The translations under genes and the position numbers were made by a program. DNA of 64,000 nt from an uncultured Gemmataceae bacterium (lineage in GTDB: Bacteria; Planctomycetota; Planctomycetia; Gemmatales; Gemmataceae): positions 1,344,001 to 1,408,000 of the forward strand of contig CAVVPN010000003.1 in assembly GCA_963750165.1 (NCBI GenBank), given 5' to 3'. Positions 1,780 to 49,750 of this stretch are shown here, piece by piece. Under the pieces are notes generated by a model. The model made no database searches, was not told the origin of the DNA, and was given only the letters and a program-made list of their open reading frames with translations. Each line of letters begins with the position of its first letter. Within the stretch, counting starts at the first letter, position 1.

Positions 1780-1829
1780 GCCGAATCTCGACATGTGAAA
1801 AAGTTGGCTCCCTTGGCTCCCTTGCTGCG
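1780..1829 (+). repeat. Dispersed repeat family X, single core
   Basis: TCTCGACATGTGAAAAAGTTGGC-TCC-CTTGGC-TCC-CTTGC; same core at 20609, 20719, 23916 (+) and 32022, 32132, 49748 (-). Confidence 0.9.
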
Positions 1830-1874
1830 TAAACGGGGGACACGTCGCGCCGCCGCGTGCCACCGCTGCCAGCA

Positions 1875-2864
1875 TCAGTGCGGCGCCACGGCCAGCCACG
1901 ACGCGACGCGGGCGGCGCCCAGCAGGGCGGTGTTCTCGTTCAGCACGACGCGCACCGGGATCGCCTGCAGCAGGTGCAGCATCCGTCCCTTGTCCAGGAA
2001 CGCTTCCAGGAAAAGCGGTTCGCGGAACTTCGCCAAATTCTTCGGGACGATGCCGCCGCCCAGGAAAACGCCGCCGGTCGCCAGCAGTTTCAACGCCAGG
2101 TTGCCCGCCTCGGCGCCGTAGATGCTGACGAACAGGTTCAGCGCCTGCACGCACAGTTCGCTCTGGCCCGCCAGCCCCGCTTTGGAAATCGCCGCCGCGG
2201 GGTCCGTGACGCCGAACTGCTGACACAACGCGGGCAGTTCGTCCGCTCGGCCGCCGCGCTGCCGCAAAAATTCATAGACGTTGTGCAGCCCCGGCCCGGA
2301 GAGGACGCGCTCGAAGCTGACGCGGCCGAACTGCGCGGTCAGGTGGACCAGCAGTTCCGACTCCAGGGCGTTGCGCGGCGCGAAGTCGCAGTGGCCGCCC
2401 TCGGAGGCGAACGGCCGGTGTTTGGTGCCGTCCCAGTACAGCCCCGCCTCGCCCAGGCCGGTACCGGCCGAGATCAGCGCCGCGTTGCCGGACACGGCCG
2501 GGCCGCCGGGGTTCAGGACGGCGAAGTCGTCCGGCCCCAGCGCGGCCAGGCCGTGGGCGTTGGCCTCCAGGTCATTGATCAGCAGCACCGACCGCGCGCG
2601 CAGTTCGTCCTGGAGGTGGTCGGCGTCCACGATCCAGGGCAGGTTGGGCGTCTCCACGCGGCCCTGCCGCACCGGCCCGGCGATGCCCAGACAGATGCGC
2701 TCCGGCTGGCGCTGCCCGTCCAGGAACGCGCGCAGGATCGGCGCCATCCCCGGGTAGTCACGACTTTTGTAGACGCCCTGGACGATTGCGCGGACGCGGT
2801 CGCCGTCGCGCTCGAAGAGCCCGAGGCGTGTGTGTGTGCCACCGATGTCGCCGGCCAGGAACAT
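1875..2864 (-). CDS. glk: Glucokinase
   Basis: LAGDIGGT, LINDLEA, AGTGLG, SEGGH, ERVLSGPG, GGVFLGGGI motifs. Confidence 0.93.
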   Translation of the reverse strand: MFLAGDIGGTHTRLGLFERDGDRVRAIVQGVYKSRDYPGMAPILRAFLDGQRQPERICLGIAGPVRQGRVETPNLPWIVDADHLQDELRARSVLLINDLEANAHGLAALGPDDFAVLNPGGPAVSGNAALISAGTGLGEAGLYWDGTKHRPFASEGGHCDFAPRNALESELLVHLTAQFGRVSFERVLSGPGLHNVYEFLRQRGGRADELPALCQQFGVTDPAAAISKAGLAGQSELCVQALNLFVSIYGAEAGNLALKLLATGGVFLGGGIVPKNLAKFREPLFLEAFLDKGRMLHLLQAIPVRVVLNENTALLGAARVASWLAVAPH

Positions 2865-2879
2865 GCGGGGAACCTCCGG

Positions 2880-3314
2880 TTACGACGCGGGCAGCAGCGT
2901 GGCCTTGAGTTCAATGCGCGGCCCGGCCAGCGCCTTGGACACGGGGCAATTCTTCTTCGCCGTTTCGGCCTGTTGCTGGAACATGGCAGCATCAATGCCG
3001 GGCACTTCCGCTTCCGTTTCCAGGTCGATCCGGCTGATCTCGAAGCCGCCCGGGATGGCGTCGAGGCGGACCTTCGCGGTGGTGTGGATGCGGCGCGGCG
3101 GGTGGCCGGCCGCCGACAGCTGGGCGGACAGGGCCATGCTGAAACAGCCGGCGTGGGCGGCGGCGATCAACTCCTCGGGGTTGGTGCCGGTGCCGTTCTC
3201 AAACCGCGACTTGAACGTGTACGGCCCCGTGTAGGCGCCGCTGCCGAACTTGATGGTGCCGTCGCCGTTTTTCAAATCGCCACGCCACTCGGCCTCGGAA
3301 CTGCGCACGACCAT
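2880..3314 (-). CDS. osmC: OsmC family peroxiredoxin
   Basis: GTNPEELIAAAHAGCFSMAL and AKKNCPVSKAL motifs. Confidence 0.93.
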   Translation of the reverse strand: MVVRSSEAEWRGDLKNGDGTIKFGSGAYTGPYTFKSRFENGTGTNPEELIAAAHAGCFSMALSAQLSAAGHPPRRIHTTAKVRLDAIPGGFEISRIDLETEAEVPGIDAAMFQQQAETAKKNCPVSKALAGPRIELKATLLPAS

Positions 3315-3387
3315 GAATCACCTCCCAAGTTAGTAGCCGAAGTCGTGAGACTTCGGACGGAACTGAACTCTCACGCGATGCAACCCC

Positions 3388-3555
3388 CTGTTGTGGCCCG
3401 GTCTCCCGACCGAGCCACGGCTGCGACCGAAGGTCTCCTCTTCAAGCGCCCGGCACGCGGGGAGACCTTCGGTCCGGCCCGGTGGCGTGGTCGGGAGACC
3501 ACGCCACAACAGGGGTCCGGCCCGGTGGCGTGGTCCGGAGACCACGCCACAACAG
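3388..3555. repeat. Composite REP/BIME-like palindromic element with a 43-bp tandem duplication
   Basis: CTGTTGTGGCCCGGTCTCCCGACC (3388) inverted to GGTCGGGAGACCACGCCACAACAG; inner IR GACCGAAGGTCTCC/GGAGACCTTCGGTC; unit 3471-3512 repeated at 3514-3555. Confidence 0.85.
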
Positions 3556-3588
3556 AAAACCCACCTCTTTACTGGGCGAGGGTGCGGG

Positions 3589-5712
3589 TCACTTCGCCTT
3601 CGCCAGCTGGGCCTTCGCCGCGGCGACGACGTGCTCGACCGTGAAGCCAAACTTCTTCAGCAACTCCTTCAGCGGGGCCGACGCCCCGAAGGTCTTCATG
3701 CCAAGGATGACGCCCGTGGTGCCGACGTACTGGTTCCAGCCGAACGTGGACGCCTGCTCGACCGCCACGCGCACCGTGACGCCGGCCGGCAGCACGCTAT
3801 CGCGGTACTCCGCCGGCTGATGCTCGAACACGTCCCACGACGGCATGCTCACCACGCGGGCCTTGACGCCCTCCTTCTTCAGCTGCTCGTACGCGCCGAC
3901 GCACAGTTGCACCTCGCTGCCGGTCGCCAGCAGCAGCACGTCCGGCTTGCCGTCCGGCGCGTCAGCCATCACATATGCGCCCTTGTGCAGCCCCGCGGCG
4001 GAGGCGTACCTGTCGCGGTCCAGGATCGGCAGATCCTGGCGCGTCAGCACCAGCACGGCCGGCTCGTGCCGCAATGGCATGATGTACTTCCACGCCTCGA
4101 CGACCTCGTTCGCGTCCGCCGGCCGCACCACGGTCAGGCCCGGGATGGCCCGCAGCGACGCCAGCTGCTCGATCGGCTGGTGCGTCGGCCCGTCCTCGCC
4201 GACGCCGATCGAGTCGTGCGTGAACACGTAAATCACCGGGATTTCCATGATCGCCGCCAGGCGAATGGGCATCCGGCCGTAGTCGCTGAAGATCAGGAAG
4301 CCCGAGCCGAAGGGCCGCAGCTTGCTCACGGACAGGCCGTTCATCACCGCGCCCATCGCGTGTTCGCGGATGCCGAAGTGGAAGTTCCGACCGCCGTAGT
4401 TGTCCGGCTCGAAGTCGCCAGCCCCCTCGAACTTCAGCGTCGTCTTGGTCGAGGCCGCCAGGTCGGCGGCGCCGCCGAGCAGCCACGGCACGTTCTTCGC
4501 GACGGCGTTCAGCATCTTGGCCGACGCCTCGCGCGTGGAGATGGCCGCGGCCTTTTTCTTGCCGGGGTTCTTGGGGTCGTCCACATCGGCCCAGGAAAAG
4601 CTGGGCAGACCGCGGTCCCAGCCGTCGGGCAGCCGTCGCTTCTGCATGCGCTCCAGGGCGTCAGCCAGGTCGGGGTGCTGCTTCTTGTACTCGGCCAGCT
4701 TCGCCCACCAGGCGGCGCACAGCGCCTTGCCGCGGGCGCCGATGCCGGCGCGAAAGGTGTCATACACACCGGCGGGCACGTCGAAGTGCTTGTCGGGGTC
4801 CAGGCCGAAGAACTGCTTGGCGCCGCGGATGGCGTCCTCGCCGAGCGGCTCGCCGTGCGCCTTGGGCGAGTCCTGCTTGCCCGGCACGCCGTAGGCGATG
4901 TGGCTGTCCACGACCACGAACGTCGGCCGGCCCTTCGTCGCGTGGAAGTCCGCCAGCACCTTGCGGATCATGCCCACGTTGTTGGCGTCGGTCACGTGCA
5001 GGACGTTCCAGCCATACGCCTTGAAGCGCTCCCCCACGTTTTCGGTGAACGTGATGGAGGTCTTGCCGTCGATGGTGATGTGGTTGTTGTCGTACAGCCA
5101 GCACAGGTTGTCGAGCTGGAGGTGGCCGGCCAGCGACGCCGCCTCGCCGGAGATGCCCTCCATCATGTCGCCGTCGCCGCAGATGGCGTAGACGTTGTAG
5201 TCGAACAGCTCGAAACCGGGGCGGTTGTAGTGGACGGTCAGCCACTTCGCGGCGATGGCCATGCCGACGCTGTTGGCGACGCCCTGGCCGAGCGGGCCGG
5301 TGGTCGTCTCGACGCCGCTGGTCAGGCGGTACTCGGGATGGCCGGGCGTCTTGCTGTCGATCTGGCGGAAGTGCTCGATGTCCTTGAGCGTCACCGACGG
5401 GTTGCCGGGGATCTCGTAATCCTTGTCGACGGCCTTGACGCCGGCCAGGTGCAGCAGCGAATACAGCAGCATGGAAGCGTGGCCGTTGGACAGGACGAAG
5501 CGATCGCGGTTCGGCCAGATGGGGTCGGCGGGGTCGAAGCGGAGCACGTCCTGCCAGAGAGTGTAGGCCAGCGGGGCCAGGGCGACGGGCGTGCCGGGGT
5601 GGCCGGAGTTGGCTTTCTGCACCGCGTCCATGGCCAGGCCGCGGATGGTGTTGATGGCCAGCAAATCGGCGGCGGCGCTCCTGGCGGGGGCCGCGGGGGT
5701 CGCTACAGACAT
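3589..5712 (-). CDS. tkt: Transketolase
   Basis: ANSGHPG, RDRFVLSNGHAS, GDGDMMEG, THDSIGVGEDGPTHQP motifs, 707 aa. Confidence 0.97.
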   Translation of the reverse strand: MSVATPAAPARSAAADLLAINTIRGLAMDAVQKANSGHPGTPVALAPLAYTLWQDVLRFDPADPIWPNRDRFVLSNGHASMLLYSLLHLAGVKAVDKDYEIPGNPSVTLKDIEHFRQIDSKTPGHPEYRLTSGVETTTGPLGQGVANSVGMAIAAKWLTVHYNRPGFELFDYNVYAICGDGDMMEGISGEAASLAGHLQLDNLCWLYDNNHITIDGKTSITFTENVGERFKAYGWNVLHVTDANNVGMIRKVLADFHATKGRPTFVVVDSHIAYGVPGKQDSPKAHGEPLGEDAIRGAKQFFGLDPDKHFDVPAGVYDTFRAGIGARGKALCAAWWAKLAEYKKQHPDLADALERMQKRRLPDGWDRGLPSFSWADVDDPKNPGKKKAAAISTREASAKMLNAVAKNVPWLLGGAADLAASTKTTLKFEGAGDFEPDNYGGRNFHFGIREHAMGAVMNGLSVSKLRPFGSGFLIFSDYGRMPIRLAAIMEIPVIYVFTHDSIGVGEDGPTHQPIEQLASLRAIPGLTVVRPADANEVVEAWKYIMPLRHEPAVLVLTRQDLPILDRDRYASAAGLHKGAYVMADAPDGKPDVLLLATGSEVQLCVGAYEQLKKEGVKARVVSMPSWDVFEHQPAEYRDSVLPAGVTVRVAVEQASTFGWNQYVGTTGVILGMKTFGASAPLKELLKKFGFTVEHVVAAAKAQLAKAK

Positions 5713-5786
5713 GAGATTCTCCTTGCACAGGGGGAACGAGGCACGCCATCGTCATTGTGCGCGGCGCCGCCGCGGTGGCCAGAGGC

Positions 5787-6335
<549 letters not shown>

Positions 6336-6417
6336 TATTAAGCCTCTTTTCCCCGGGCGATGCACGATTCGCGAATAATGAACCAGAGGCACCTTCCCGG
6401 ACCCCTTGGAGAAACCC

Positions 6418-6850
6418 ATGTCACGAAAAGCCACTGGCTGGTTCCGCGAGCAAGACGGCTTCTACAACACCACCTTCTGCGGCAAGCAAGTCAAACTGTC
6501 CCAGGACAAGGACGAGGACGAACGGGCATTCCACGCCCTGCACGCCAGCGTCTCCGAAGAGCCCGAGGCTGGCGGCTACCGGCCGACCTTCCGCAAGCTG
6601 GCTGACCTCTATCTGGATTTTACCCAGCAGGCCAAGAGCGAGCAGACTTACGCCCACCAGAGGTATTTTTTGCAGCTGTTCTGCGACCACCTCTGCAGCT
6701 AACGAGCCGCCGAGGTGAAAGCGGGGGATGTGACCGCGTGGGTGCTCAAGTTCAAGGGCCGGTGGGGGCACAACACGTAGGTGATATCCCGTGGCCTCGT
6801 CGCGGCGTGCCTGAATTGGGCCGTCGAGCAGGGCTTCCTGCCCTACTGCC
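6418..6850 (+). pseudogene. N-terminal remnant of a tyrosine recombinase/integrase
   Basis: MSRKATGWFREQDG..GKQVKL..TFRKLADLYLDF..SEQTY..LQLFCDH then through stops TAA 6700 and TAG 6778: AAEVKAGDVTAWV..WGHNT*..VAACLNWAVEQG; resembles arm-binding and SAM-like domains; no catalytic domain follows. Confidence 0.65.
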
Positions 6851-6954
6851 GCCCCGATTCCGAATCCGCCCAGCCCTTCGGCGGAGGTTCGGCTGGGCTT
6901 GGCTGTCGCGAACACCCGGTGGCGTTTTTCCCAGCCCTCGGCCAAAATCAACGG

Positions 6955-9761
6955 TCAGTTCGTGCTCTTGGTAATGAACTCCACCACCGGCTGGAGGTGT
7001 TTTGGCGCGAGCGGGTAATGCCCCGCGCCTTCCTGGACGATGACCGTGATCCGGCCATCGAGTTCCCGGTAGCGCTTCTCGGCGACTCCCGTCTGCCCCT
7101 GGAGCCAGGGGTCGCGGCTGCCGCAAACGTGTAGCAGCGGCACCCCGGCCTTGGCCAGCACCGCCAGCTGATCGAGGGGCTGTTTTTTCGACATGTGACT
7201 GCGCAGGATGGGGTTCTCGCCGTAGACGCAACTCACCTTGTCCGGGTTCGCGACCGCCCAGGCGTACGCCTCCCCGGCAGCCCCCCCGCGCCTGCCAGGA
7301 CCGGCTTTCGGGAAAAGCCGTGGTTGGTGAAATACTTGTACACGGCGTTCCACTGTTGCAACACTGGGCCGTTGGTGTCCGTGGGCACGGGGCCAGTGAC
7401 GACGTGAAACCCTTTGGCCAACAGCGCCAGATCCACCACTGCGTCCCGGCCGACGAAGTCCGCCCGGAACACCCAGGGCTTCCCCAGGGCCGCCGCCCGC
7501 GGCGCGATCACGGTGACGGCCCCCTTGATGCCGTTGAGCCGAAATTCGTAGCGGTCGAAAGACGCCGTGAACGACGGCCCGCGACAGGTGATGTACGTCC
7601 CTTCCTTCGGGAAGTCGCGGTACAGGCTCTCGACGCCGTAGAAGGCGGACTTCGTGTGCAACTTGCCGGCGAAGGTGGGCGGGGCGCCGCCGGCCGGCTG
7701 AAGGCTCCGCACAATGAAGTCCGCAATCGGCGCCGGGTCGCGCAGGCTGTGCGGGTGATGACCGGCGCCTTCCTTAATCATCATGGAGATGCGGCCGCCC
7801 AGCTGCTGATAAATGTTCTCGACCACCAGCGTGTGCTTTCCCAGGAGGGGGTCGAGGCTGCCGCAGACGTGCAGCAAGGGGATGTCGTGCCGCGCCAGCG
7901 CCCCGAGTTTCGCCAGGCTGTCCGGGCTGATCGCGGGGTTGTCGGCGTAGATGCAAGCGACCTTGTCGGGGTGGGTCGTGGCCCAGGTGAAGGCGTTACG
8001 CCCGCCCCGGCTCATGCCGACGAACGCCGGCCGGGGAGACAGCCCGTGCTTCTCCGTCAGGAACGTGTACCACGCCTCCCACTGCTTGCCGGCGTCGGCC
8101 TGGATGTAGCCGACGTGGAAGCCGCGCCGGAGCAACTCCACCTCAACCTGGGGCTCGTGGTCGAAGTAATAGCCGCGCCAGGACCACGGCTTGCCAGGCG
8201 CCGCCTTCTTCGGGACGACCACCACGCACCGTAACTGACCCTTGACCTGCTGTTTGATCCCGTTTTTCTCATCCGCCGTCGCCTTGAACGGCTTGATGGC
8301 CAGGCTCTCCTTGTCCATCAGGAAGTCGTAACGGTCGAACCCGTGCCAGGCCGTCTTCTCGCCCGTGAAGGCCGCGGGGGCTTCCGCCTTGCGCTGGGCC
8401 GCGGCGGCGTCGCCGGATTGCCTGGGGCCTGCGGGTTTTTCCCGAACCGGCAACTCGTCCCGGGCCGCCACCTCGCCGCGCAGGAGCTTGCCCGCCATGC
8501 CCGTCAGCCACAGGTAATGGTCACTGGGCAAGCCTTGCAGGGTGAGGAACTTGCTCGCCCCCACCGGTGGGTCATTCGTGCATTTGAAGATCGCCGTGCC
8601 CTCGTCCATTTCGTCGAACATGGCCACGTAGAGCATCGCCGCCCCGGCTTTTTTCGCCTCGGCGAACTGCTTCCACAGGAACCGGCCCTGCTGCCGCGGG
8701 ATCTCATCCAGCGCCGACTTCGGGCGCAGGTTGTGCCAGCTGAAACCGGGAAAGACGACCGGCAGGTACTCCTTGCCCCGGTCCTGGCACCATTTGCCAT
8801 CAGGGGCCCAGCGCTGCCGGGCGTGGTCCGCAACGTTTTGGAGCGACCGATAGCGGCCCACCGTCCACGGACTGACGACATCCGCCCTGGCGATGATCCG
8901 GTGCAGGGCCGGGTCCTTGACGCTGTCCCGGTCCAGGGTGCGCCAGCCGGTCGGCACGCCCAGCAAGACGGTGCAGCCCCCGTATTCCTTGTCGTTCTTG
9001 AGAAAATCCACAAGCTTCTCACATTCGTCCAGGCTGTACTTCCGGCCGTCGTTGAAGCCGACGCCCCAGACCGCCACGACCGGCCTGCCCTGGTGGCGCA
9101 GATAGGCGGCGTCCTTCGCGTCCTTGCCGATTTTCATGCGGCCCACCAACAGCTTCCAGTCCTCAATGACGCGCCGGGTGCCACCGGCGGACAGGCCCGA
9201 CAGGTCGTACATGACGGCGTAACAGCGCCCGGAGCGGTTGGCCCCTTCGCGGCAGTGCGCCAGGACGGTGTTGCAGTGCCGCAGGTCTTTCGGCTGGACC
9301 GTCTCGACGGCGAAGCGCTGCACGAACACGCCGTCAATGCCGTACTGCTCCATCCAGCGGAAGTGCCGCAGCACGGTTTTGGGGTGATGGGAGCTGAACA
9401 CCTCGGCCACCCGGCCGTTCTGGTGCCGGAAGGGCGTCGCGATTTTTTCGTCTGCTTCCAGTTCGCTCACGTCGGGCCACAGGTCGATGCTGCACGAGCC
9501 GGGTTTGAACTGACCCCGACTCGGGTAGTGGCGCCAGCCGCGGCCGGACCCGTCGCCGGGAGCCGTGAACCAACCCTGGTAGCCGCACAGAACCTTCCCG
9601 GTCAGGGTGGAAGCATCCACGCCCTTGGCCGACGGCCCGTCGTAGGGGCGCATGGCGGCGATCACTGCATCCCGGGTCGGCGTTGGCTGCTCGGCCTCAG
9701 CCGGCGCCCAGCAGCCGAGGGGGAGGGCCAGGAAGACCAGAACTCGAACCAGCGGGTTCAT
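6955..9761 (-). CDS. Secreted GH71/99-like glycoside hydrolase fused to two alpha/beta-hydrolase domains (1-bp frameshift ~7285)
   Basis: Signal peptide MNPLVRVLVFLALPLGCWAPAEA; YQGWF, DGVFVQRF, PVVFPGFSWHN, YVAMFDEMDEGTAIFK; GMSRGG hydrolase; second repeat continues in ORF 6955..7353 after a G-run indel. Confidence 0.75.
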
Positions 9762-11340: not shown

Positions 11341-11422
11341 GTTCTGCCGCTTGCGGCTTAGCGCTCTGAAACCCATCTCCCGTTCGATGGGCCGCAGCGC
11401 GCTAAGCCGCAAGCGGCAGAAC
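11341..11422. repeat. REP-like palindrome (GCCGCTTGCGGC family), copy 1
   Basis: 24-bp IR GTTCTGCCGCTTGCGGCTTAGCGC / GCGCTAAGCCGCAAGCGGCAGAAC; related copy at 18059-18141. Confidence 0.85.
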
Positions 11423-11424
11423 CA

Positions 11425-14232: not shown

Positions 14233-14317
14233 GAGAGTCATTAGTCATTAGTCATTAGTCATTAGTCAACTGGGGTCCGGTTGATTAATGACTAATGACT
14301 AATGACTAATGACTCTC
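14233..14317. repeat. Inverted pair of heptamer tandem arrays (AGTCATT)4 / (AATGACT)4
   Basis: 38-bp arms with one mismatch around a 9-bp loop; overlaps the ispF stop codon. Confidence 0.95.
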
Positions 14318-14857: not shown

Positions 14858-16213
14858 TCAGGCGCCGTAGCCGAAGGGTGGCTCGACGGCGAAGTTCTCA
14901 TAGCGCATGAACTGCTTGAGGTAGGTGAGCGTGACCTCGCCAGTGGGGCCGTTGCGCTGCTTGGCGATGATGACCTCGATGACGCCCTCGTGCTGGCCCG
15001 GTTCGTGCAATTCCGGACGGTGCAGCAACATCACGGTGTCCGCGTCCTGTTCTATACTTCCAGACTCCCTTAAATCCGATAATCGTGGCCGATGGTCCTG
15101 GCGGTCCTCGGAACTGCGATTCACCTGGGCCAGCGACATCACCGGGATGTTGAGTTCGCGGGCCAGGAACTTGAGACGGCGCGAGATTTGCGCCACCTGT
15201 TCCTGGCGCGGGTCGCGGCGGTTGTCCGGCTCAATGAGCTGCAGATAATCGATGACCACCAGTTTGAGGCCGTGGCGGAGTTTCAGCCGGCGGGCATTGG
15301 CGGCGATGCGGAGCATTCCCTGGCCGGGCGAGTCGTCGATGAACAGCTTCGCCTGCCGCAGATTATCGCCCGCCTGGATCAACTTGTCCATGTCATCGCC
15401 ATTGAGATGGCCCTTGCGCAGTTTATGGCTGTCCACCCTGGCGTGCGAACACAGCAACCGTTCGGTCAACTCGATGCGCGACTGCTCCAGGCTGACGAAG
15501 AACACGGTGGCCTGTTCTTCCACGGTGACGTGGCGGACAACGTTCAAGGCGAAGCTCGTCTTGCCGACCGAGGGCCTGGCGGCCAGGATGACGAGTTCCG
15601 AGTTTTGCAGTCCCGCGGTGAGATTGTCCAGGTCGATGAAGCCCGTCGAGATACCGCTGATCGATTGTTTGTGCAGCAGCCGGGCGTCAATGCGGTTGTA
15701 GGTTTCGTCCAGCGCTTTTTGCAGAGTGACCGTTTCACCGGTAATGCCCAGTTCGGCGATCTCAAAAATCTTGCGCTCGGCGCCGCCGATCAATTCGTCG
15801 GCGGGGGAGGATTGCTCGTAACAGTCGCGGAGGATTTCGGTGCTGGTGTGGATGAGCGTGCGCAGCAGCGCCTTGTCACGGACAATGCGGGCGTAATATT
15901 CAGCGTTCGCGGCGGTCGGGGCGGCGTCCCACAAATCGGCCAGGTAGGTCAGACCGCCCACGTCTTCGAGGAACTTTTGTTGCTTCAGCCATTCCGCCAG
16001 CGTCACCAGATCGGCAGGGTTATTTTTCCCAGCGTAAAGGGCCTTGATACCTTTGAAGATTTTGCGGTGGGCGTCCGTGTAAAAAAAATCCTCGCTCTGG
16101 AGAATTTGAAACACATCATCAATGATTTTATTATCGCGCAGCATGCTGCCCAGCACGCTGCGTTCGGCGTCACGGTTCTGAGGGGGAAGACGTTCGCTTC
16201 CTTGCTCGGACAT
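14858..16213 (-). CDS. dnaB: Replicative DNA helicase
   Basis: AARPSVGKT, IDYLQL, DLRESGSIEQDAD, KQRNGPTG; no intein present. Confidence 0.97.
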   Translation of the reverse strand: MSEQGSERLPPQNRDAERSVLGSMLRDNKIIDDVFQILQSEDFFYTDAHRKIFKGIKALYAGKNNPADLVTLAEWLKQQKFLEDVGGLTYLADLWDAAPTAANAEYYARIVRDKALLRTLIHTSTEILRDCYEQSSPADELIGGAERKIFEIAELGITGETVTLQKALDETYNRIDARLLHKQSISGISTGFIDLDNLTAGLQNSELVILAARPSVGKTSFALNVVRHVTVEEQATVFFVSLEQSRIELTERLLCSHARVDSHKLRKGHLNGDDMDKLIQAGDNLRQAKLFIDDSPGQGMLRIAANARRLKLRHGLKLVVIDYLQLIEPDNRRDPRQEQVAQISRRLKFLARELNIPVMSLAQVNRSSEDRQDHRPRLSDLRESGSIEQDADTVMLLHRPELHEPGQHEGVIEVIIAKQRNGPTGEVTLTYLKQFMRYENFAVEPPFGYGA

Positions 16214-20526: not shown

Positions 20527-20600
20527 GATTCCACCGCTTCTTTGCAAGCTAGCGCGGTTCGCAGTCGCGTGGCCCACAAACGGCAGGCCGGCGCTGCCAG

Positions 20601-20773
20601 GCGCCGCATCTCGACGTATGAAAAAGTTGGCGTTCTTGGCGTTCTTGGCGTCCTTGCTGTGGCAACCGCCGCCGCTGGTGGTCGCGCCGTGCCACTCCCA
20701 CGCGGCCAGGGCGCCGATTCTCGACGTGTGAAAAAGTTGGCCCCCTTGGCCCCCTTGGCCCCCTTGCTGCGAC
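20601..20773 (+). repeat. Dispersed repeat family X, two cores 110 bp apart
   Basis: Cores start at 20609 and 20719; 9-mer fillers GTT/GTT/GTC and CCC/CCC/CCC. Confidence 0.92.
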
Positions 20774-21040
20774 AGCGCAGGCCCCTGCTGGTCAAGCTGT
20801 GCCCGCCGTCCCACCGCGGGCGCGATCCGCGTGCGAACCGCTCCAGGAGAGAAATGCACCGGAACTCCATCGCCGGCGCACCGGCTCAGCGTACCAGGGG
20901 CTGAAACCGCACGCAATAGGATGGACCCGTTTACACGGGGTTCGGTTCACGTTGCGGGCGCCCTTGCGGAGTCTGCCGGGCTCGATCACAATGAAGCCCG
21001 CGCATCCCGTGAAAACTCAAGCGACCGGACTGGAAGGAGC

Positions 21041-23722: not shown

Positions 23723-23908
23723 ATCCGTCTCAACTGGCCAACGTCGCGGCAATCTGCCAGGCACCGGACGAGCGCAGCAGATCGAGCGCCGGCACCAAAC
23801 GCCACAAAGCCACGAACCGTGCCCGCCGGACCCGAAGGCACCCGCGGTCATTGGACCGAGTTTTGGCCGGATGCAGCGCTACTCTGGCCGCGTGCTCCAG
23901 GGCCAGGT

Positions 23909-24052
23909 CGCCGATTCTCGACATGTGAAAAAGTTGGCGTTCTTGGCGTCCTTGGCGTCTTTGCGCTGCCCGGCGCTGCCGGACATCTCACGGCACTGCT
24001 TTTTGGTTCCGCCCTGGCACACGAGCCGTTGACCGCCCTGGCCCCCTTGCGC
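23909..24052 (+). repeat. Dispersed repeat family X, core plus ~90-bp tail
   Basis: Core at 23916; the whole ~144 bp aligns with the reverse complement of 31886-32030. Confidence 0.9.
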
Positions 24053-29218: not shown

Positions 29219-29233
29219 CCCGCCCGTCCGGTG

Positions 29234-29317
29234 CCCCCACCCCCGACCCTCCCCCACCAGGGGGAGGGAACATCACTTTCCCCCTCCCCCCTGGTGGAGG
29301 AGGGTCGGGGTGGGGGG
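29234..29317. repeat. REP-like palindrome (CCCCACCCCGACCCTCCCC family)
   Basis: CCCCCACCCCCGACCCTCCCCCACCAGGGGGAGGG / CCCTCCCCCCTGGTGGAGGAGGGTCGGGGTGGGGG. Confidence 0.8.
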
Positions 29318-29374
29318 AGCCGCCGGTCGCCCTCGTGGGGACCGACCACATTCGCCAGGCCGAAAGGGTGCCGT

Positions 29375-31885: not shown

Positions 31886-32140
31886 GCGCAAGGGTGCCAG
31901 GGCGGCCAACGGCGCGTGTGCCAGGGGGGGACAAAAAAAGCGTGCCGTGGGATGCCTGGCAGCGCCGGTCCGCGCAAGGGTGCCAAGGGTGCCAAGGGTG
32001 CCAACTTTTTCACACGTCGAGATGCGGCGCCCTTGCCCCGCACGGGTGGCTCTGCTCGACAGCGGACGGCAGCGGTTGCCACAGCAAGGGGGCCAAGGAG
32101 GCCAAGGGAGCCAACTTTTTCATACGTCGAGAATCGGCGC
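31886..32140 (-). repeat. Dispersed repeat family X, longest copy: two cores 110 bp apart plus tail
   Basis: Minus-strand cores start at 32132 and 32022; fillers TCC/CTC/CCC and ACC/ACC/ACC. Confidence 0.92.
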
Positions 32141-32256
32141 CCTTGGGCCGGCTACAGCGTCATCCTGCGGACCCCTCAGGAACGCAGCAGCGCGTACCGG
32201 AGTGTGCCACTGCCTCGCCGCCTTGCTGGAACACGCCCCGAGCCGCCAGCGGTTTT

Positions 32257-42993: not shown

Positions 42994-43001
42994 CCTCCTT
43001 C

Positions 43002-43067
43002 TCGTGGGGCAGACATTCCTGTCTGCCATCTTTTGAAGGTTGGCAGACAGGAATGTCTGCCCCACGA
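43002..43067. repeat. REP-like palindrome (GTGGGGCAG family)
   Basis: TCGTGGGGCAGACATTCCTGTCTGCCA / TGGCAGACAGGAATGTCTGCCCCACGA perfect IR. Confidence 0.9.
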
Positions 43068-43076
43068 AAATTGCTC

Positions 43077-43105: not shown

Positions 43106-43111
43106 CCCCCC

Positions 43112-43430: not shown

Positions 43431-43551
43431 CTCTTGCATGTGCAATTTTTGCAAGCCTGCCCCATTTCACCGCTGTAAAAAAGGTCGCCCAACCGGTCGT
43501 GTCGCCGACCCACATTGCGAAATTTCCAGGGTTTTTCGGCTTTCCGGCGTT

Positions 43552-43567
43552 TGGCACACCATGTGCA
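43552..43567 (+). promoter_or_regulatory. Candidate sigma54 (-24/-12) promoter
   Basis: TGGCAC-ACCAT-GTGCA with GG and GC 12 bp apart; TGCAA-TTT-TTGCA palindrome ~110 bp upstream. Confidence 0.55.
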
Positions 43568-43710
43568 ACATTTATTTCTAGTTGGTACATCTTGCGGAAC
43601 AACCCGGGGGCCAACCGACCCCCGGAAACACACCCCGTTGCTTTCCTCGGAACAAAGCCACGGTTTTTCCGGACGCGCACCCCGTGCGCAACAGAGAAGA
43701 GGTACGTCTC

Positions 43711-44268
43711 ATGGCCGCCCTGCAACTGGCCATCGCCCTGGTTTGGCTGTCCACGCCCCCCGATCAATTTACCTGCCCTGAGATGAACCAGTGGCACCGG
43801 GTGCTGGCCGGGCCGATCCGGGTGCTGGCCCTGCGCTGGGAGGTGCTCGACCCGCGCGAGGCCGGCCACCTGCTCGCCCGCGCCGAGGACTTCAAGGACG
43901 ACCTGCGCACCCTGCAGGAGCGCTGCGAGGAGTTGCGCACGGCGCCGCCGCTGTGCGAGGCCGAGCGTTTCCCGGGCCGCGATCTGGTCAGCGACATGAT
44001 GGCCTTCAACCGCGCCTATCACGACAACCTCAGCAAGCGGCTTGAACTGGACCGCATCCACGCCGAGGAGTTGCGTCAGGCACTGCAGGAGACCGATCAG
44101 CTGCACCGCGTTTGGAATACCGTCCACGAGATCAACTGCCCGTATTACTACGTCACCTACCGCCGCCAGGCCCTGCGGCAGTTGCGCGAACTGATCGGCG
44201 AGCAGGCGTTCTACACCGGCAACCTGCCGCCGCACGTGCCGCTCTGGCGCATCCCGGAAGCCCGTTGA
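43711..44268 (+). CDS. Hypothetical protein, probably exported
   Basis: SD GAGG, hydrophobic N-terminus, normal codon usage, ends LPPHVPLWR. Confidence 0.8.
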   Translation: MAALQLAIALVWLSTPPDQFTCPEMNQWHRVLAGPIRVLALRWEVLDPREAGHLLARAEDFKDDLRTLQERCEELRTAPPLCEAERFPGRDLVSDMMAFNRAYHDNLSKRLELDRIHAEELRQALQETDQLHRVWNTVHEINCPYYYVTYRRQALRQLRELIGEQAFYTGNLPPHVPLWRIPEAR

Positions 44269-44271
44269 GCA

Positions 44272-44324
44272 AAAAAGATTCACCACAGCGAACGCTCTCC
44301 GCGTTCGCTGTGGTGAATCTTTTT
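44272..44324. terminator. Bidirectional terminator-like palindrome between convergent genes
   Basis: Perfect 24-bp IR AAAAAGATTCACCACAGCGAACGC / GCGTTCGCTGTGGTGAATCTTTTT. Confidence 0.8.
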
Positions 44325-44338
44325 AACCCCCGAGGTCG

Positions 44339-45793
44339 CTACTTGCCGCCGCCGCGGTTAATGGTGAGGCCGATGACGCGCGCCCGCGGCCCGGTCACGC
44401 GCACGACGATGCCTGCGGGTTCGCTGCTGCCGCTCGAGATCAAGGACACGAGCACGACGCGCGTCTGCGCCGATGGCAGCTTCAGCAGATACGCGGAGTC
44501 CGCCGGACTCGCCTTCTTGGCATACTCCTCCACCGTCACCACGTTGCCCACCTTGAACGACGCCTGCTGTTGCTTGAGTTGCTCCTTCATCCCCTCGAAC
44601 ACCATCTTGAAGAAGCCGTCCAGGTCTTCGCGCTTCGTGAACTGGGCCGCGCTTGCGAAGTTGAAGGGCACGTCCGTCGATTTCTGGAACATTTTGAAGT
44701 CGGTGTTCAGGATGCTGTTGAGGAACTGTCGGGTTACGTCCCGCGAACGCTGCTGCGTGTTGGCGAAGAACAGATCCGTGTCGCTTTTCGCCAGGTCGAA
44801 CTTGGCCGCGCGCTCCTGCCACCACTGCTTCCAGGCAGCCTGGGCCTTGCCGCGCACTGCCGGGTCGTCGGTCACCGCGGCCTGCGGGGCGGCGTTGCCG
44901 GCAACGCGCTGCAACAGATCCTCGGCCTGCTCGGCGTAGCGGAACGGGCCGTCGGCCAGCAGCGCGATCAACACCGGCACGCCGATCTTGTCGCGAGCGC
45001 ACAGCAGCCCCTGGGCGGCGCGGAAGCGAACCATCGCCTCCTTATCGGCCAGCAGTTTGCGCACCTCGGCGCGCTGGGTAGTGCTGCCCTCGCGGCCGAG
45101 CACCAGCGCCGCCACGGCGCGCCGCAGCGGCGACTTGTCTGTCAGGGCCGTCGCCAGCACCGGGTCGATCTTCTTCGCGTCGATGGTCAGCGTCAGCACC
45201 GTCGCCACCATTTCATCCTCCACGAGGTCGTTGGCGGCGTAGGGCAGGAAGTTCAGCAGCAGCGGCACGGCCCCCTGCGGCCGGCGCTCGCGCAGCAGCC
45301 GCACGGCCGCCCCGGTCTGGGCGCTGGTGAACTTCCCCTCGATCTCCTGCATGATCTTGCTGGCGCGGCGGCTGGTCTCCAGATCACGGCCTTCCATGAA
45401 GGTGCGCAGCAACGGCAGCACCCGCGGGCCTTCCTTGAGCAGATCCCGGGTGGCCTTGTCGCGCACCTTGAAGGACTTGTCGGCCAGGTTCTTGATGATC
45501 GGCTCCAGGCGGGTGCGGTCCTGCTCGGTGGGAATGCGGTTGTTCAGGAATGTCAGCAGGGCGGGCCCGTCGGTGGCGACCCTGGCTTCCTTGAGCAGGT
45601 GCTCATCCTCGGCGATCTGCGGATCGACGGGCAGAGCGAACAGTTCGAAGAACCGCGACTGCTGCGGTCCCTGGGCCTTCTTGTCCTTCTTCTCCATCGC
45701 CTGCTGGCCGCGCAGCCCGGCGGTCGGCCCGCCGACGGCCAGTGCCAGCGCCGCCAGCAAACCGAGGGTGACAACCATCCGTTTCATGGGCAC
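44339..45793 (-). CDS. Exported HEAT-repeat protein (paralogue 1)
   Basis: Signal peptide; TDGPALLTFL, LADKSFKVRDKA, RRAVAALVLG, VRFRAAQGLL. Confidence 0.85.
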   Translation of the reverse strand: MPMKRMVVTLGLLAALALAVGGPTAGLRGQQAMEKKDKKAQGPQQSRFFELFALPVDPQIAEDEHLLKEARVATDGPALLTFLNNRIPTEQDRTRLEPIIKNLADKSFKVRDKATRDLLKEGPRVLPLLRTFMEGRDLETSRRASKIMQEIEGKFTSAQTGAAVRLLRERRPQGAVPLLLNFLPYAANDLVEDEMVATVLTLTIDAKKIDPVLATALTDKSPLRRAVAALVLGREGSTTQRAEVRKLLADKEAMVRFRAAQGLLCARDKIGVPVLIALLADGPFRYAEQAEDLLQRVAGNAAPQAAVTDDPAVRGKAQAAWKQWWQERAAKFDLAKSDTDLFFANTQQRSRDVTRQFLNSILNTDFKMFQKSTDVPFNFASAAQFTKREDLDGFFKMVFEGMKEQLKQQQASFKVGNVVTVEEYAKKASPADSAYLLKLPSAQTRVVLVSLISSGSSEPAGIVVRVTGPRARVIGLTINRGGGK

Positions 45794-45907
45794 ACTCCGT
45801 CCAAGGTTGCGAACGCCGCGCCGGCAGCGGGTCGGTCGTTCTGGGGAGGAATCCTGATACAGCCTCCACCGGATTGTGCATGAGATTTCCGGTGTTCGGG
45901 AGCCTGG

Positions 45908-47521
45908 TCAATAGCCGCCGTTGAAGCCGAAGGGTTGGTACGCCACGACGCGCACGTCGTCACCGCGCACCGACACCACCAGCGCCACCGAGCCGAACAG
46001 AATATTTTGGTCGCGCACGTCGGCCGTGGCCACGAACAGGCCGCTGTGTCGGTAGGTCTGCAGGAACGACTTCCATCCCTGCGGGGCCTTCTTGGCGAAC
46101 TCCGCCGCGGGCATGAAGCGCTTGAACGTGAGCGGATAGCCGAACTGATTGGAGGCCATCAACTGCGGATAATACTGGTCCAGCTGAGCCCGCGTCGTCA
46201 GCCACGAGAACGACACGGGTTGCATAACGCCCTTGCCGTAGCCACCCCCGTAGGGGTTCATCTGGTTCTGGCGGGTGAACAGGGCAAAGGGCGCGTCCGT
46301 GAGACGCCGAAACGCCTGCGCGTCGTGTTCGTTCAAACAGCGGACGAATTCCACGGCGACGGCGTAAGCGCGGGGCAGCGATCCCGTCCGCGGCCCGACG
46401 CCGGTGAGTGCCGGCAGCGACCGCCGGCCGCTGCGCTCCTGCCACCAGGTGACCCAGCCGTCGTGGTATTGTTTGCGGACGTTGCCGAAGGTCGCCTCCA
46501 GCGGTTGCTGATTCGGTTGCGGTGTGTTCGGCGTGTAGACCGCGGACATCGGCCCCGAGTAGATGCCGTTCATGTTGGGTTGCTTGGGCAAGGGCGGCAT
46601 CTTCTTGTCGAACTTCGGATACAGCGCCAGCGGCGCTGAGTCGCCGGCCAGGCGCAGCAGCACTTCCTCCGCCCGCTCCGCCCACGGCAGCGGGGCCTCG
46701 GCCAGCATGTCGAGCAGCACCGGGACGGCGGCCCGGTCGCCGCCGCCGAGCAGCCCCTGCGCGGCGCGGAAGCGCACGCCCGGGTCGGTGTCTTGCAAAC
46801 ACTGTCGCGCCACCTGTTGATGCCGGGCGCTGCCGTGACGGCCCAGCACCAGCGCCGCGGCGGCGCGGCGCGCGGGGATTGGGTCTGTTATCGCCACGCG
46901 CATCAGGTCAATGGTTTCGCCTTCGGGCATACCAATTTCCCACAGGGTTGCCAGCGCCTCCTCTTCTCCGTGTTCGTCCGCCACCGGCAAATATTGCAGC
47001 AGCGCCGCCGTGGCGCCGGCCGGCTTGCGGTCGCGCACCAGGCGCAGCGCGGCGCTGACCGCCTCCGGCCCCTGGCGGCGGACCATCAACTCGCGCAGCC
47101 GCTGCAAACGACGTTTCAACTCCAGGCCGGCGGTTTTGTCCAGTTCCGCCAGCGGCGGCAGCGCCGAGGGGCCGACGGCGATGAGATCCTTCAGGGCCTG
47201 TTCGCGGACGCGGTAGTTGCTGGACGACAGCCGCGGCAGGGCATGGGTGACGCGCTGGTAGGGCGACTTCGGCCCGGCCTGCCAGCCGACCACTTCCAGC
47301 AGTTCGCGCGGCTTGACCAGCGGCGCGGGCGGCCGGGCCGCGGTGTGCTGCCAGCGCAGGAACTCGAGCAGGGCTGGGCCGTCAGTCGGCAGCTGGAGGC
47401 CGCGCAGCAGCCGCTCGTCGTCGGCGCACCGGGCGGCGTGCGCCGCGGTCGGGACGCTGGGCTCCAGAAACCCACCGAACGCCAGCAGCAGCATGGGCAA
47501 GGCAGACACTCCAGTGGGCAT
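45908..47521 (-). CDS. Exported HEAT-repeat protein (paralogue 2)
   Basis: SD AAGGAGG before ATG 47521; TDGPALLEFL, RRAAAALVLG, VRFRAAQGLL. Confidence 0.82.
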   Translation of the reverse strand: MPTGVSALPMLLLAFGGFLEPSVPTAAHAARCADDERLLRGLQLPTDGPALLEFLRWQHTAARPPAPLVKPRELLEVVGWQAGPKSPYQRVTHALPRLSSSNYRVREQALKDLIAVGPSALPPLAELDKTAGLELKRRLQRLRELMVRRQGPEAVSAALRLVRDRKPAGATAALLQYLPVADEHGEEEALATLWEIGMPEGETIDLMRVAITDPIPARRAAAALVLGRHGSARHQQVARQCLQDTDPGVRFRAAQGLLGGGDRAAVPVLLDMLAEAPLPWAERAEEVLLRLAGDSAPLALYPKFDKKMPPLPKQPNMNGIYSGPMSAVYTPNTPQPNQQPLEATFGNVRKQYHDGWVTWWQERSGRRSLPALTGVGPRTGSLPRAYAVAVEFVRCLNEHDAQAFRRLTDAPFALFTRQNQMNPYGGGYGKGVMQPVSFSWLTTRAQLDQYYPQLMASNQFGYPLTFKRFMPAAEFAKKAPQGWKSFLQTYRHSGLFVATADVRDQNILFGSVALVVSVRGDDVRVVAYQPFGFNGGY

Positions 47522-47918
47522 ACGATCCTCCTTGTTAGTGATCCCGGTACGAATTACAGCGATTGTAAGTTTTTCGCCGCCGTTTCCGCCAGCCGGAACG
47601 GACGCGAAAAATCCACGGCGACCCCAACACACTTCCGACGAATGACTTGTGCTGTCGGATTGCAGCGTCCGCGCCGACCGGCACGCGATCTGCAATGACA
47701 TACATTCGACCTGATCGAGCCAAGAAGCGCAGGTCACTCCGGTGGGTTGGCAGCCCGCCGCCTTCCCCGGCGGCGGCCACGGCTTCCCCCGGCCGTGCGG
47801 CGAACGGCGTTCGTTGCGGAGGTTCTTCCCCACCTCCCGACCCAAGGCGACCGCCCCGCGGCGAACCCCCGGATGACCGGTGCTTCCCTGTCTAACTCCC
47901 GCCCTGACCCCTACCGAT

Positions 47919-48335
47919 TTACCCCCCTTCGCCACCCGCTTCCCCCGGCGGGTGGCTTCTTTTTTTGATTCCGGCATCGCGCAATTTCATGGTGGTGTTG
48001 GTTGCCTCCACGTCGGGAAGTTCCCTGCGCGGATCCTGGTCGCCGAGTTGCAACAGGAAGACATGCTCGCCCACCTGGAGACGATCGCCGTTGTGCAGCG
48101 GCGCCTGGCTGCGGATGCGCTGACCGTTGAGGAACGTGCCGTTACTGCTGCCGAGGTCGGCGATCGTGGCCTCGGCGCCGCGCAACCGCAACAGGCAGTG
48201 GTGGCGGCTGATGGCCGCGTCGTGCAGCCGCAGGTCGCAGTCGCTGCCGCGGCCGACCAGGAACTCGTCCTTCACGATGGCGATTTCATGGCTCAGGGCG
48301 GATGCTTCCGCCATCTCGATGAGTTTGGCCGTCAT
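47919..48335 (-). CDS. FHA domain protein
   Basis: VGRGSDCD, ISRHH, DLGSSNGTFLNG. Confidence 0.92.
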   Translation of the reverse strand: MTAKLIEMAEASALSHEIAIVKDEFLVGRGSDCDLRLHDAAISRHHCLLRLRGAEATIADLGSSNGTFLNGQRIRSQAPLHNGDRLQVGEHVFLLQLGDQDPRRELPDVEATNTTMKLRDAGIKKRSHPPGEAGGEGG

Positions 48336-48439
48336 GAGAGTGTCTCCGAAAAAGCAGCCGCGTGGTGGTCCAGGTCGTTTTCGTTATGATAACCGCGACG
48401 CCGCCTGCAAGATAGGGCCTACCCGCCAGGAGCTTCCGC

Positions 48440-49642
48440 ATGGACCCGACCGCCGCCCGGGCCTGCTTCCCCGGCACCCGCGACTGCGTGTTCCTCGACG
48501 CCGCCTGCGTCAGCCTGCTGCCCGTGCAGGCCGCGGCGGCGTTGCAGCGTCTGACGCAGGAACTGCTGACCTGCCCGGCCCGCGACGCCTCGGCGCAACA
48601 TATCGCCCTGGACCGCAGCGCCGACCAACCGCGCCACGAGGCCGCCCGACTGATCGGCGCCCGCCCCGAGGACGTGGCGCTGATCGAGAGCACGACGCAG
48701 GGCTTGCAGGCCATCGCCGCGACGGTGCCGCTGGGGCCGGGCGACACGGTGCTCGTCGGCGCCACGGAATTCATGGGCCTGGCAGTGCCGTGGATTCCGC
48801 GGCAGGCGACGCAGGGCTTTCGGCTGGAGGTGGTGCCGCACCGCGACGGCCGGCTGCTGGCCGAGGATTTTGCGCGCGTGGTCGATAGTCATACGCGCAT
48901 GATTTTGCTGAGCAGCGTGCAGTGGAACAACGGCTACCGCGCCGACCTCGCGGCGTTCAGCGAACTGGCCCGCGCCCGCAACCTCATCCTGGTCGTGGAC
49001 GCGATCCAGCAGTTGGGGGCGGTGGCGCTGGACGTGGGGCGGACGCCGGTTGATTTCCTGGTGACCGGCGGGCACAAGTGGCTGAACGCGCCGGTGGGCC
49101 GTGGTTTCCTGTATGTCCACCCGCGCTGGCAGGAGCGGCTGCGGCCGGCGGCCTGGGGGTATCTCAACATCTGCCAGCCGCCGGAGGGCTGGGCCAACTA
49201 TTTCGCGACGCCGACGATCCCGGCGGTGCGCGACTACGACTTTCACCGCGACGCCCGCGCCTTCGAGGTCGGCGGCACCGCGAACTACCCCGGCAACGCA
49301 GCGCTCGGGGCGGCGCTGGCGCTCATCAACGAACTCGGCATTGATGCCATCAGCGGATACGTCCTGGACCTGACCGAGGAGCTGCTGGAGGGGCTGCGGC
49401 GGGCAGGTACGACGGTGGTGACGCCGCCGGAGCGGGCGAGCCGGTCGGGCATTGTGACGTGTACGCTCGGCCGCGGCGTGGCGGCGGATACGGCGTTGTT
49501 GCAGCAATTGCTGGACCGGCGCATCCTGATCTCGCAGCGCTTCACGGCGGGCGTCGGCGGACTGCGGGTGTCGGTGCATTTCTTCAACAACCGGGACGAC
49601 ATCGGGCGGCTGACGGAGGCAATGCGAGAGTTGTCCGATTGA
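48440..49642 (+). CDS. Class V PLP-dependent aminotransferase (cysteine desulfurase/isopenicillin epimerase-like)
   Basis: STTQGL, VVDAIQ, GGHKWL, FEVGGT, LRVSVHFFN. Confidence 0.88.
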   Translation: MDPTAARACFPGTRDCVFLDAACVSLLPVQAAAALQRLTQELLTCPARDASAQHIALDRSADQPRHEAARLIGARPEDVALIESTTQGLQAIAATVPLGPGDTVLVGATEFMGLAVPWIPRQATQGFRLEVVPHRDGRLLAEDFARVVDSHTRMILLSSVQWNNGYRADLAAFSELARARNLILVVDAIQQLGAVALDVGRTPVDFLVTGGHKWLNAPVGRGFLYVHPRWQERLRPAAWGYLNICQPPEGWANYFATPTIPAVRDYDFHRDARAFEVGGTANYPGNAALGAALALINELGIDAISGYVLDLTEELLEGLRRAGTTVVTPPERASRSGIVTCTLGRGVAADTALLQQLLDRRILISQRFTAGVGGLRVSVHFFNNRDDIGRLTEAMRELSD

Positions 49643-49689
49643 CCGCGCGCGCCCGACAGGACTGGCATTGGTGGTCGCTCGGTGGCGCC

Positions 49690-49750
49690 GGTTGTCGCAG
49701 CAAGGGGGCCAAGGAGGCCAAGGGGGCCAACTTTTTCATACGTCGAGATT
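49690..49750 (-). repeat. Dispersed repeat family X, single core
   Basis: Reverse complement TCTCGACGTATGAAAAAGTTGGC-CCC-CTTGGC-CTC-CTTGGC-CCC-CTTGCTGCGACAACC. Confidence 0.9.

Follow-up and report, generated by a model that had tools for sequence, protein, structure and literature searches.

What is the asymmetric repeat that recurs between genes in this stretch of DNA, and what could have spread it? The window, meaning the whole stretch of 64,000 nt that was analysed, holds seven exact matches to the core TCTCGACRTRTGAAAAAGTTGGC, starting at 1786, 20609, 20719 and 23916 on the plus strand and at 32022, 32132 and 49748 on the minus strand, confirming the positions and strands of the original prediction. 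Each core is followed by two to three units of the NNN-CTTGGC type. None of the seven overlaps a called gene, and the neighbouring genes are divergent at some copies, co-directional or convergent at others, as had also been claimed. The copies and the features attached to them are:

1773..1862, plus strand: element copy with left arm, core 1786-1808, two 9-bp units and a phased tail ending GTGCCA
20549..20846, plus strand: 298-bp composite with inverted ends (CTAGCGCGGTTCGCA ... TGCGAACCGCTCCAG), holding an element doublet
20596..20694, plus strand: element copy 1 of the doublet, core 20609-20631, three units
20706..20804, plus strand: element copy 2 of the doublet (110-bp spacing), core 20719-20741, three units
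23903..24001, plus strand: element copy with three units and a variant tail, core 23916-23938
24036..24050, plus strand: additional iteron-like unit (CCCTGGCCCCCTTGC), following the 23916 copy and its variant tail
31888..31902, minus strand: additional iteron-like unit, following the 32022 copy and its variant tail
31937..32035, minus strand: element copy 2 of a doublet, core 32000-32022, three units, variant tail
32047..32145, minus strand: element copy 1 of that doublet, core 32110-32132, three units
49663..49761, minus strand: element copy with core 49726-49748, three units and a tail that ends in TGCCA; inverted ends absent

Across the genome (G000), the core has 273 matches at up to four mismatches, 199 of them exact, and the reversed genome used as a control has none; the core is therefore not a chance motif. 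These matches make up 197 loci in 9.6 Mb, so the predicted hundreds of copies do exist outside the window. The predicted density of one locus per ~13 kb holds for the window (5 loci in 64 kb) but not for the genome, where the mean gap is 46 kb; the window is simply denser. The unit is ~99 bp long and asymmetric, consisting of a degenerate inverted left arm, an invariant core, usually three 9-bp units (234 of the 273 copies) and four 10-bp-phased sites that extend ~37 bp past the last CTTG to a right end of GTGCCA. Around the A/T-rich centre TGAAAAAG, three right-hand units stand on one side and one degenerate inverted left unit on the other. The description of the repeat as lacking an inverted partner holds only in part, as a degenerate one, the left arm CMAGGGNGCCRMW, is present. 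Core identity is 0.94 among 56 non-redundant copies while the spacers are nearly random, G is conserved at +52/+62/+72/+82, and indels are almost absent. Fillers are homogenised within a copy as stated (first base identical between units in 91-93% of the 56 copies) but are not free, following N-Y-Y. The fixed bases, free spacers and helical phase fit the multimeric protein-binding array that was proposed. Modules are mosaic across copies: the left iteron set, a single degenerate unit, is inherited independently of the tail. Tails that end at GTGCCA are near-identical at unrelated loci. Doublet spacings cluster near 100 and 110, and 75 of 76 doublets are direct.

The suggested genome-wide scan found the copies strand-unbiased (123/124) and almost all intergenic, with only 2 of 197 loci inside an ORF call, each time close to its 3' end; a coding repeat was rejected on this count. 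They are gene-free and lie among unrelated genes. Convergent gaps are over-represented (47/197 loci versus 413/3311, p=1e-5) and copies point the same way as the downstream gene about as often as against it, 109 co-oriented versus 88 opposed. A promoter or regulon was rejected given the balanced orientation, the convergent-gap excess and the unrelated neighbours. No replichore pattern is evident along the contigs, whose weak GC skew does not allow ori/ter to be placed, and a replichore-polarised motif was rejected on the strand counts and the lack of such a pattern. Gaps between loci are random (CV 0.99), which does not support a nucleoid-type regular spacing. Copy number is lineage-specific, with 235 arms in G000 versus 1-9 in 8 of 251 family genomes. 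Most single matches near E 0.005 are probably noise and were left out of the analysis. The exact core occurs in 0 of 40 relatives, and viral-sequence scans gave no matches.

A non-autonomous mobile element, another of the original proposals, is likely. Mobility is favoured by the random gaps, the excess of convergent gaps, the near-identical tails at unrelated loci and an array behind a gene in a metagenome contig, the G000 counterpart of that gene having none. The target duplications that were to be looked for were not found: 56 copies show none of 3-5 bp around the unit, and the tetranucleotides flanking the composite at 20549..20846 differ, giving no exact duplication. Our searches brought to light neither a circular intermediate nor an enzyme for insertion, and no clean empty site. 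The tail as a target preference was rejected, since iteron-less tail-like matches number 279/50/16 versus 378/75/15 in the reversed genome. Composite loci form near-identical subfamilies of 170-300 bp with inverted ends of ~15 bp. In this they resemble MITEs, yet only 71 of 196 loci have both ends (random rate ~7% per side), and terminal inverted repeats are missing from the 99-bp unit itself. Their flanking tetranucleotides are identical in 5 of 71 cases, and 12 of 71 have TA at each side, unlike MITE target duplications. The same ends also bracket unrelated REP-like repeats, so that, unlike in MITEs, they carry several unrelated repeats, and no cognate transposase was seen. These ends raise the possibility that the repeat is an inert relic. 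An IS-derived miniature element would have distributed one origin-like sequence, gene conversion would have kept its copies alike, and a helicase would play no part today; the mosaic modules and a helicase ORF that looks frameshifted would agree with this. However, both ends are missing at 70 of 196 loci, whose copies are the most diverse and still keep core and phasing. Nor was an IS with these ends seen among the multicopy regions listed or among 11 DDE_3 matches (genome 93% complete), and gene conversion by itself leaves unexplained why single bases at 10-bp steps are fixed while the spacers between them are free. We regard such a relic as quite unlikely.

Abundant dispersed repeats of bacteria for which a mobiliser has been proposed, such as REPINs and MITEs, are tied to transposases. 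Like REPINs, as parts of PMC3116915 describe them, the present repeat occurs hundreds of times at random extragenic positions, with many copies in doublets, and has one candidate partner gene adjoined by a copy. In contrast to REPINs, it is non-palindromic, its doublets are direct instead of inverted, and it has no GTAG/CGTC tag; its candidate partner is a helicase, and no core lies near Y1/RAYT genes. The nearest cores are 9.4-55 kb from the four Y1_Tnp matches in the genome, and none lies within 10.6 kb of the resolvase matches on core-bearing contigs, which speaks against the proposed transposase or recombinase end sites. One IS630 match lies 803 bp from a core. A search for Y2 transposases (IS91/ISCR-type) gave no matches in G000, the control genomes being likewise silent. 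Tests of the repeat for hairpins found no covariation, no compensatory pairs and mean fold z of -0.65/-0.86, and Rfam gave no window matches at the gathering threshold; a hairpin or structured RNA was rejected on the covariation and Rfam results. The repeat may resemble IHF and parS consensus sites.

The original prediction also likened part of the repeat to short repeats at GxxExxY loci. Such genes are flanked by inverted arrays of period 8-10, CGCCAAG-type arms occur at 2 of 33 GxxExxY loci by pattern and at a third by eye, and G043 and G147 have symmetric CTTGGC hairpins. The repeat might thus be an asymmetric offshoot of the period-9 arms of these PD-(D/E)XK nuclease genes, a REP-like family spread by the nuclease. 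However, both GxxExxY genes of G000 carry other arms, so the link fails in this genome, and 0 of 20 fetched arm loci have such a gene. The base before GCCAAG is free in the repeat but C in GxxExxY arms, and hairpin covariation is absent. The case for this offshoot is weak and we consider it very improbable; the evidence points instead to an AAA_25 helicase as partner.

The stand-alone AAA_25 helicase ORF of G000 (contig C4) stops at 1201117, inside the core that starts at 1201112; in only 46 of 6585 G000 genes (0.7%) does the stop lie 100 bp or less from a core. An array also abuts an AAA_25 (RepA/SF4-type) gene in five relatives (G013, G047, G118, G184 and G236), the G236 case coming from a prospective fetch (1 of 20 loci). 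It is 3' of the gene at 1 of 197 loci in G000 and in one copy in G013, and upstream of it in G047, G118, G184 and G236. Among Gemmataceae genomes, TTGRC arrays lie within ~400 bp of 13 of 45 AAA_25 loci versus 4 of 238 control windows (Fisher p=2e-5, counted as 13 of 90 AAA_25 windows versus controls). The pattern is loose, kin are not independent, and L082, the locus of discovery, is counted among the 45; the remaining 32 loci lack the pattern. No adjacency was seen in several multicopy genomes: G158 has none clear among seven AAA_25 matches, G081 and G197 have 0/6 and 0/2, none was seen in G102, and G022, 85% complete, has no AAA_25 match. Two viral helicase loci have no clear array. Compared with homologues, the G000 ORF seems to carry a frameshift close to its 3' end, possibly an assembly error; it lacks an N-terminal primase and has no close relative in a quick tree. 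The integrase beside it is integron-like with its own cassette-like array; an integron attC was rejected, as no core lies among the cassette-like genes of that integron (C4:1186-1200 kb). The G184 protein matches phage primase-helicase families, and its model (pLDDT 88.8) aligns to RSF1010 RepA with Z 22.4 and rmsd 3.0 over 214 residues. The C-terminal domain of the model is H-H-H-E-E, by secondary structure alone a putative winged helix; an Atlas search with the helicase C-terminal domain returned only unnamed clusters.

The anatomy and dispersal of the repeat thus go together with a common iteron motif and with helicase-gene adjacency in six genomes. In SaPI/PICI origins, according to parts of PMC9371898 and PMC6092414, opposed short iterons flank an A/T-rich stretch, with a copy at the helicase gene 3' end. 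The opposed iterons around an A/T-rich centre seen here are similar, though weaker than the two-per-side rule in that part of PMC9371898. Satellite-like loci in G060, G062, G079 and G089, with GCCAA iterons in both orientations directly behind the gene, match the origins as described there. Several differences exist: the SaPI/PICI helicase is SF3/MCM-type while this one is SF4/RepA-type, the left iteron set here is one degenerate unit, and there is an extra 10-bp-phased tail. Whereas those systems have one origin per excisable island with integrase and primase, 273 chromosomal copies here have neither enzyme. We think it somewhat probable that the repeat descends from the iteron origin of an AAA_25 helicase element as a miniature without genes, and that it would spread non-autonomously through recognition by that helicase. 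The C-terminal three-helix/two-strand domain would bind iterons of the form (G/C)CAAG-RRN-GCCAA, placed at either side of the A-rich core and facing it, an arrangement shared with SaPI/PICI origins, and the bound helicase may open the core. The opened unit could then be copied or recombined into new sites, and only copies retaining the contacted bases would propagate. Recombination among copies may shuffle arms, fillers and tails, and a subset of copies was perhaps later captured between MITE-like ends and amplified further.

High core identity despite nearly random spacers could also mean that the host selects these sites, as dispersed auxiliary origins or loading points of a domesticated phage helicase acting with the chromosomal head-gene cluster (GTA-like run-off replication or packaging) or as nucleoid-protein sites. 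G000 has a terminase-portal-protease-capsid-like cluster at C3:2481-2495 kb, and a terminase-like gene directly follows the AAA_25 gene in 5 of 46 tree-set loci, plus G019. In Bartonella, as parts of PMC2697382 describe, one genome combines a phage-derived helicase gene of SF4 type with an origin-like sequence and with head genes clustered on the chromosome, and a GTA is coupled to run-off replication from the helicase origin. G000 likewise has all three components, but Bartonella has one conserved origin and G000 hundreds of putative, lineage-specific sites. Against host selection stand this lineage-specific copy number and the absence of the exact core from the 40 relatives, the random spacing without strand bias, and the lack of any core in 24 kb around the head cluster. 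We judge it unlikely.

If the family is indeed tied to a replication helicase, as in the origin-derived reading we prefer, it would give DNA without genes a further means of multiplying and would place hundreds of potential melting or loading sites on one chromosome. Candidate protein and candidate site are both named, which opens the idea to direct test. A doubtful extension is that planctomycete chromosomes may harbour REPIN-like selfish origin repeats, with one SF4 helicase opening and copying hundreds of them without a dedicated transposase; in lineages with the linked terminase/capsid cluster, these may also seed local over-replication and packaging of host DNA. No description of the repeat was found in literature on GxxExxY, AAA_25 helicase origins and satellites, planctomycete GTAs or Gemmataceae intergenic repeats, and CTTGGC and Gemmata are absent from the main text of PMC3733652. 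G000 also contains two sister repeat families, and at least eight relatives have related ones, suggesting a recurrent process in Gemmataceae, not a one-off.

All seven cores that the original prediction had recognized in the window lie at the positions and on the strands it gave. The window is located in contig C3 of the source genome, G000 (9.6 Mb, 12 contigs, 93% complete). Judging by gene content and by the sources of family homologues (Planctomycetia, Fimbriiglobus), the organism is a planctomycete, probably of the Gemmataceae. A genome-wide motif scan of G000 yielded 199 exact cores and 273 allowing ≤4 mismatches, confirming that hundreds of copies exist, also outside the window; the reversed genome, serving as a control, contained 0 cores at ≤4 mismatches. 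The 273 cores are spread over 197 loci, of which 121 have one core and 76 a pair. Both copies have the same orientation in 75 of the 76 doublets, and doublet spacings group around 100 and 110 bp. All copies had been said to be intergenic, and this holds genome-wide for 195 of 197 loci according to gene calls made in the present analysis. Core counts by strand (123/124) reveal no bias, and the loci are randomly spaced (CV 0.99 for n=180 gaps). Convergent gene gaps are over-represented among the loci (47/197 vs 413/3311). The repeat is real, and it is apparently a non-autonomous dispersed repeat undescribed so far; our literature search, mostly without subscription papers, found no description of it.

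Using 56 non-redundant three-unit copies and taking the start of the core as reference, we delimited a conserved block that extends from -13 to +85. In it, the 23-bp core follows CMAGGGNGCCRMW and leads into three NYY-CTTGGC units, of which the last ends CTTGC; behind them comes a tail of four phased sites with G at +52, +62, +72, and +82, terminating in GTGCCA. Three 9-bp units are present in 234 of the 273 copies. The fillers are indeed homogenized inside copies (91-93%), but the free variation ascribed to them gives way to the pattern NYY. Similarly, the repeat had been held to lack an inverted partner; the left arm is the inverse of one unit, albeit a degenerate one, and only to that extent does the claim stand. 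Left arm and fillers do not covary, RNAalifold on 32 copies returned 0 compensatory pairs, and folding of 40 copies barely exceeds mononucleotide shuffles. The conservation pattern would fit protein contacts on double-stranded DNA, not a hairpin.

Unrelated loci can have near-identical tails, which stop at GTGCCA, and unlike left flanks. The modules are shuffled: among 61 copies lacking inverted ends, a similar tail is no guide to the fillers, the left arm, or the base at core position +9, a comparison resting on 34 similar pairs that are not independent. No 3-5 bp duplication flanking the unit was found. As a second layer, 71 of 196 loci (for example, window 20549-20846) are enclosed by inverted ends of YTAGMGCGGTTCRCA type, and 70 loci have neither end; flanking tetranucleotides are identical in only 5 of the 71 loci with both. 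No IS carrying such ends was seen among the multicopy regions listed or among 11 DDE_3 matches. An inert relic spread by a MITE, a reading on which the enclosed loci and the 70 loci without ends bear in opposite directions, seems to us quite unlikely. Organization resembles that of REPIN-RAYT systems (PMC3116915), and construction that of a PICI origin, yet the element departs from both families, and from the MITEs, in defining features. Recombinase or transposase end sites had also been suggested. RAYT, resolvase, and IS630 matches are not next to cores, the sole exception being one IS630 fragment that adjoins an inverted end.

Genome-wide, YTAGMGCGGTTCRCA-type ends have 273 strict matches, enclose several unrelated REP-like repeats, and often adjoin each other over a CTAG-like junction; no cognate transposase was seen. 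Other hairpin or REP-like features of the window are as follows.
14233-14317, hairpin with AGTCATT heptamer arms
3385-3515, 11341-11422, 29229-29322, and 42999-43070, four more REP-like inverted repeats of different families

GxxExxY nuclease genes have inverted short-period arrays on both flanks, a likeness behind the idea that our element is an offshoot of GxxExxY-associated repeats. CTTGGC-type arms, however, occur at only 2 of 33 GxxExxY loci and at neither of the two G000 GxxExxY genes; the suggested link fails in this genome, and we consider such descent highly improbable. By eye, nearly all of the 33 loci (L011, L012, and 31 of L123-L159) have inverted arrays with a period of 8-10 bp on either side, of the types CACAGAG, CACAAAG, CGCAAAG, CACGGAT, and CGCCAAG. 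These are possibly an undescribed REP-like system in their own right; searching full-text literature for GxxExxY by name found nothing related.

None of 40 relatives contains the exact core, and a phylum-wide scan of 400 genomes found the strict arm pattern in 0. When the arm pattern was relaxed, 8 of the 251 family genomes matched, each with 1-9 copies (controls 0), and a profile search detected related multicopy families in G022, G158, G013, G118, and G047, that of G022 having the same layout with a spacer of 17 nt. Cores of G236 have the RTRYGAAAAA half in common with the G000 core. In one metagenome contig the complete element follows a gene that has a counterpart in G000 (85% identity), and behind that counterpart the element is missing; this pair is not a clean empty site because the next gene differs. 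Contigs of four soil runs contain element parts with other flanks.

Our candidate partner is an AAA_25 gene, encoding a RepA/SF4-type helicase. A single arm lies upstream of one in G184, and in G000 the end of the homologue at C4 falls inside a core; a core lies within 100 bp of the stop in 46 of 6585 G000 genes. Arrays adjoin AAA_25 genes in G013, G047, and G118 and, among prospectively fetched loci, in 1 of 20 (G236), and none was seen doing so in G158, G081, G197, G102, or G022. A loose TTGRC-array pattern occurs at 13 of 45 AAA_25 loci, which include the discovery locus and related genomes; of 238 control windows, 4 show it. A quick tree of 46 AAA_25 proteins, leaving out 10 rows not matched by the Walker A pattern used, has arrays on more than one branch and places no protein close to that of G000. 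The G000 helicase ORF at C4 looks frameshifted; other split genes occur in the assembly. The G184 protein is intact, keeps its Walker motifs, and matches phage primase-helicase families. Its model (pLDDT 88.8) has a RepA/RadA fold, with RadA and RSF1010 RepA as best Foldseek hits and a VIA Z of 22.4 against 1g8y, and ends in a three-helix, two-strand domain that, from its secondary structure, may be read as a winged helix. In SaPI/PICI origins, according to PMC9371898 and PMC6092414, iterons flank an AT-rich region on both sides immediately behind rep and are bound by a C-terminal winged helix. Satellite-like loci in G060, G062, G079, and G089 have iterons such as CGAAGATTGCCAA and CATAGGATGCCAA behind a helicase gene, in both orientations. 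On the opposite strand, the element's arm is an overlapping run of GCAAG-RRN-GCCAA, a form shared with these iterons.

Alongside the observed anatomy, dispersal, common motif, and helicase adjacency, we somewhat favor an origin-like array, putatively helicase-recognized, that was copied as a non-autonomous unit and partly amplified in a MITE-like carrier. The helicase would bind the iterons and open the A-rich core, and the opened unit could then be copied or recombined to other sites. Selection for recognizability would hold the contacted bases fixed, and some copies may have been amplified later within the carrier. It is unlikely that the copies are instead host-selected sites tied to a chromosomal head-gene cluster, for which PMC2697382 offers a comparison case. 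Such a cluster (terminase, portal-, protease-, and capsid-like genes; no tail or replication genes in view) lies at G000:C3:2481000-2495100 and is a candidate gene-transfer agent. An AAA_25 gene sits directly upstream of a terminase-like gene in G205, G019, G119, G106, G101, and G099.

G000 has further AAA_25 genes. Satellite-like elements at C11:1552000-1559000 and C11:2136000-2145000 contain AAA_25 genes followed by different origin-like iterons (GAACATCATC and GATACC types). A second AAA_25 gene at C12:312453-313948 is truncated by a duplicated 958-bp stretch of rpoC, which may be a misassembly. At C4:1186000-1199911, an integron-like integrase, which bears two SAM_4 domains at its N terminus, lies directly upstream of the helicase gene, with a partial second copy and a cassette-like array. 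The window itself has a weak AAA_25 match (14858-16156, minus strand, E 4e-12), presumably radA.

Two further families in G000 have phased tails, that of the first, a sister family, being 10-bp-phased as in the main element.
G000:C3:129141, 744622, 1734912, and others, sister family built of GTTTCATYTCAC / GTGARATGAAAT units; of 17 pattern matches, 12 are intergenic look-alikes
G000:C3:1143259, C4:647394, C11:285609, C11:1409103, and C12:1299765, third family, small, with GTCACCTGGCCAC units in 4 of its 5 copies
TTTCAT units resembling the sister family occur upstream of AAA_25 genes in G013 (locus L233) and G158 (L232), and another AAA_25 gene of G013 (L183) has units like those of the third family on its upstream side.
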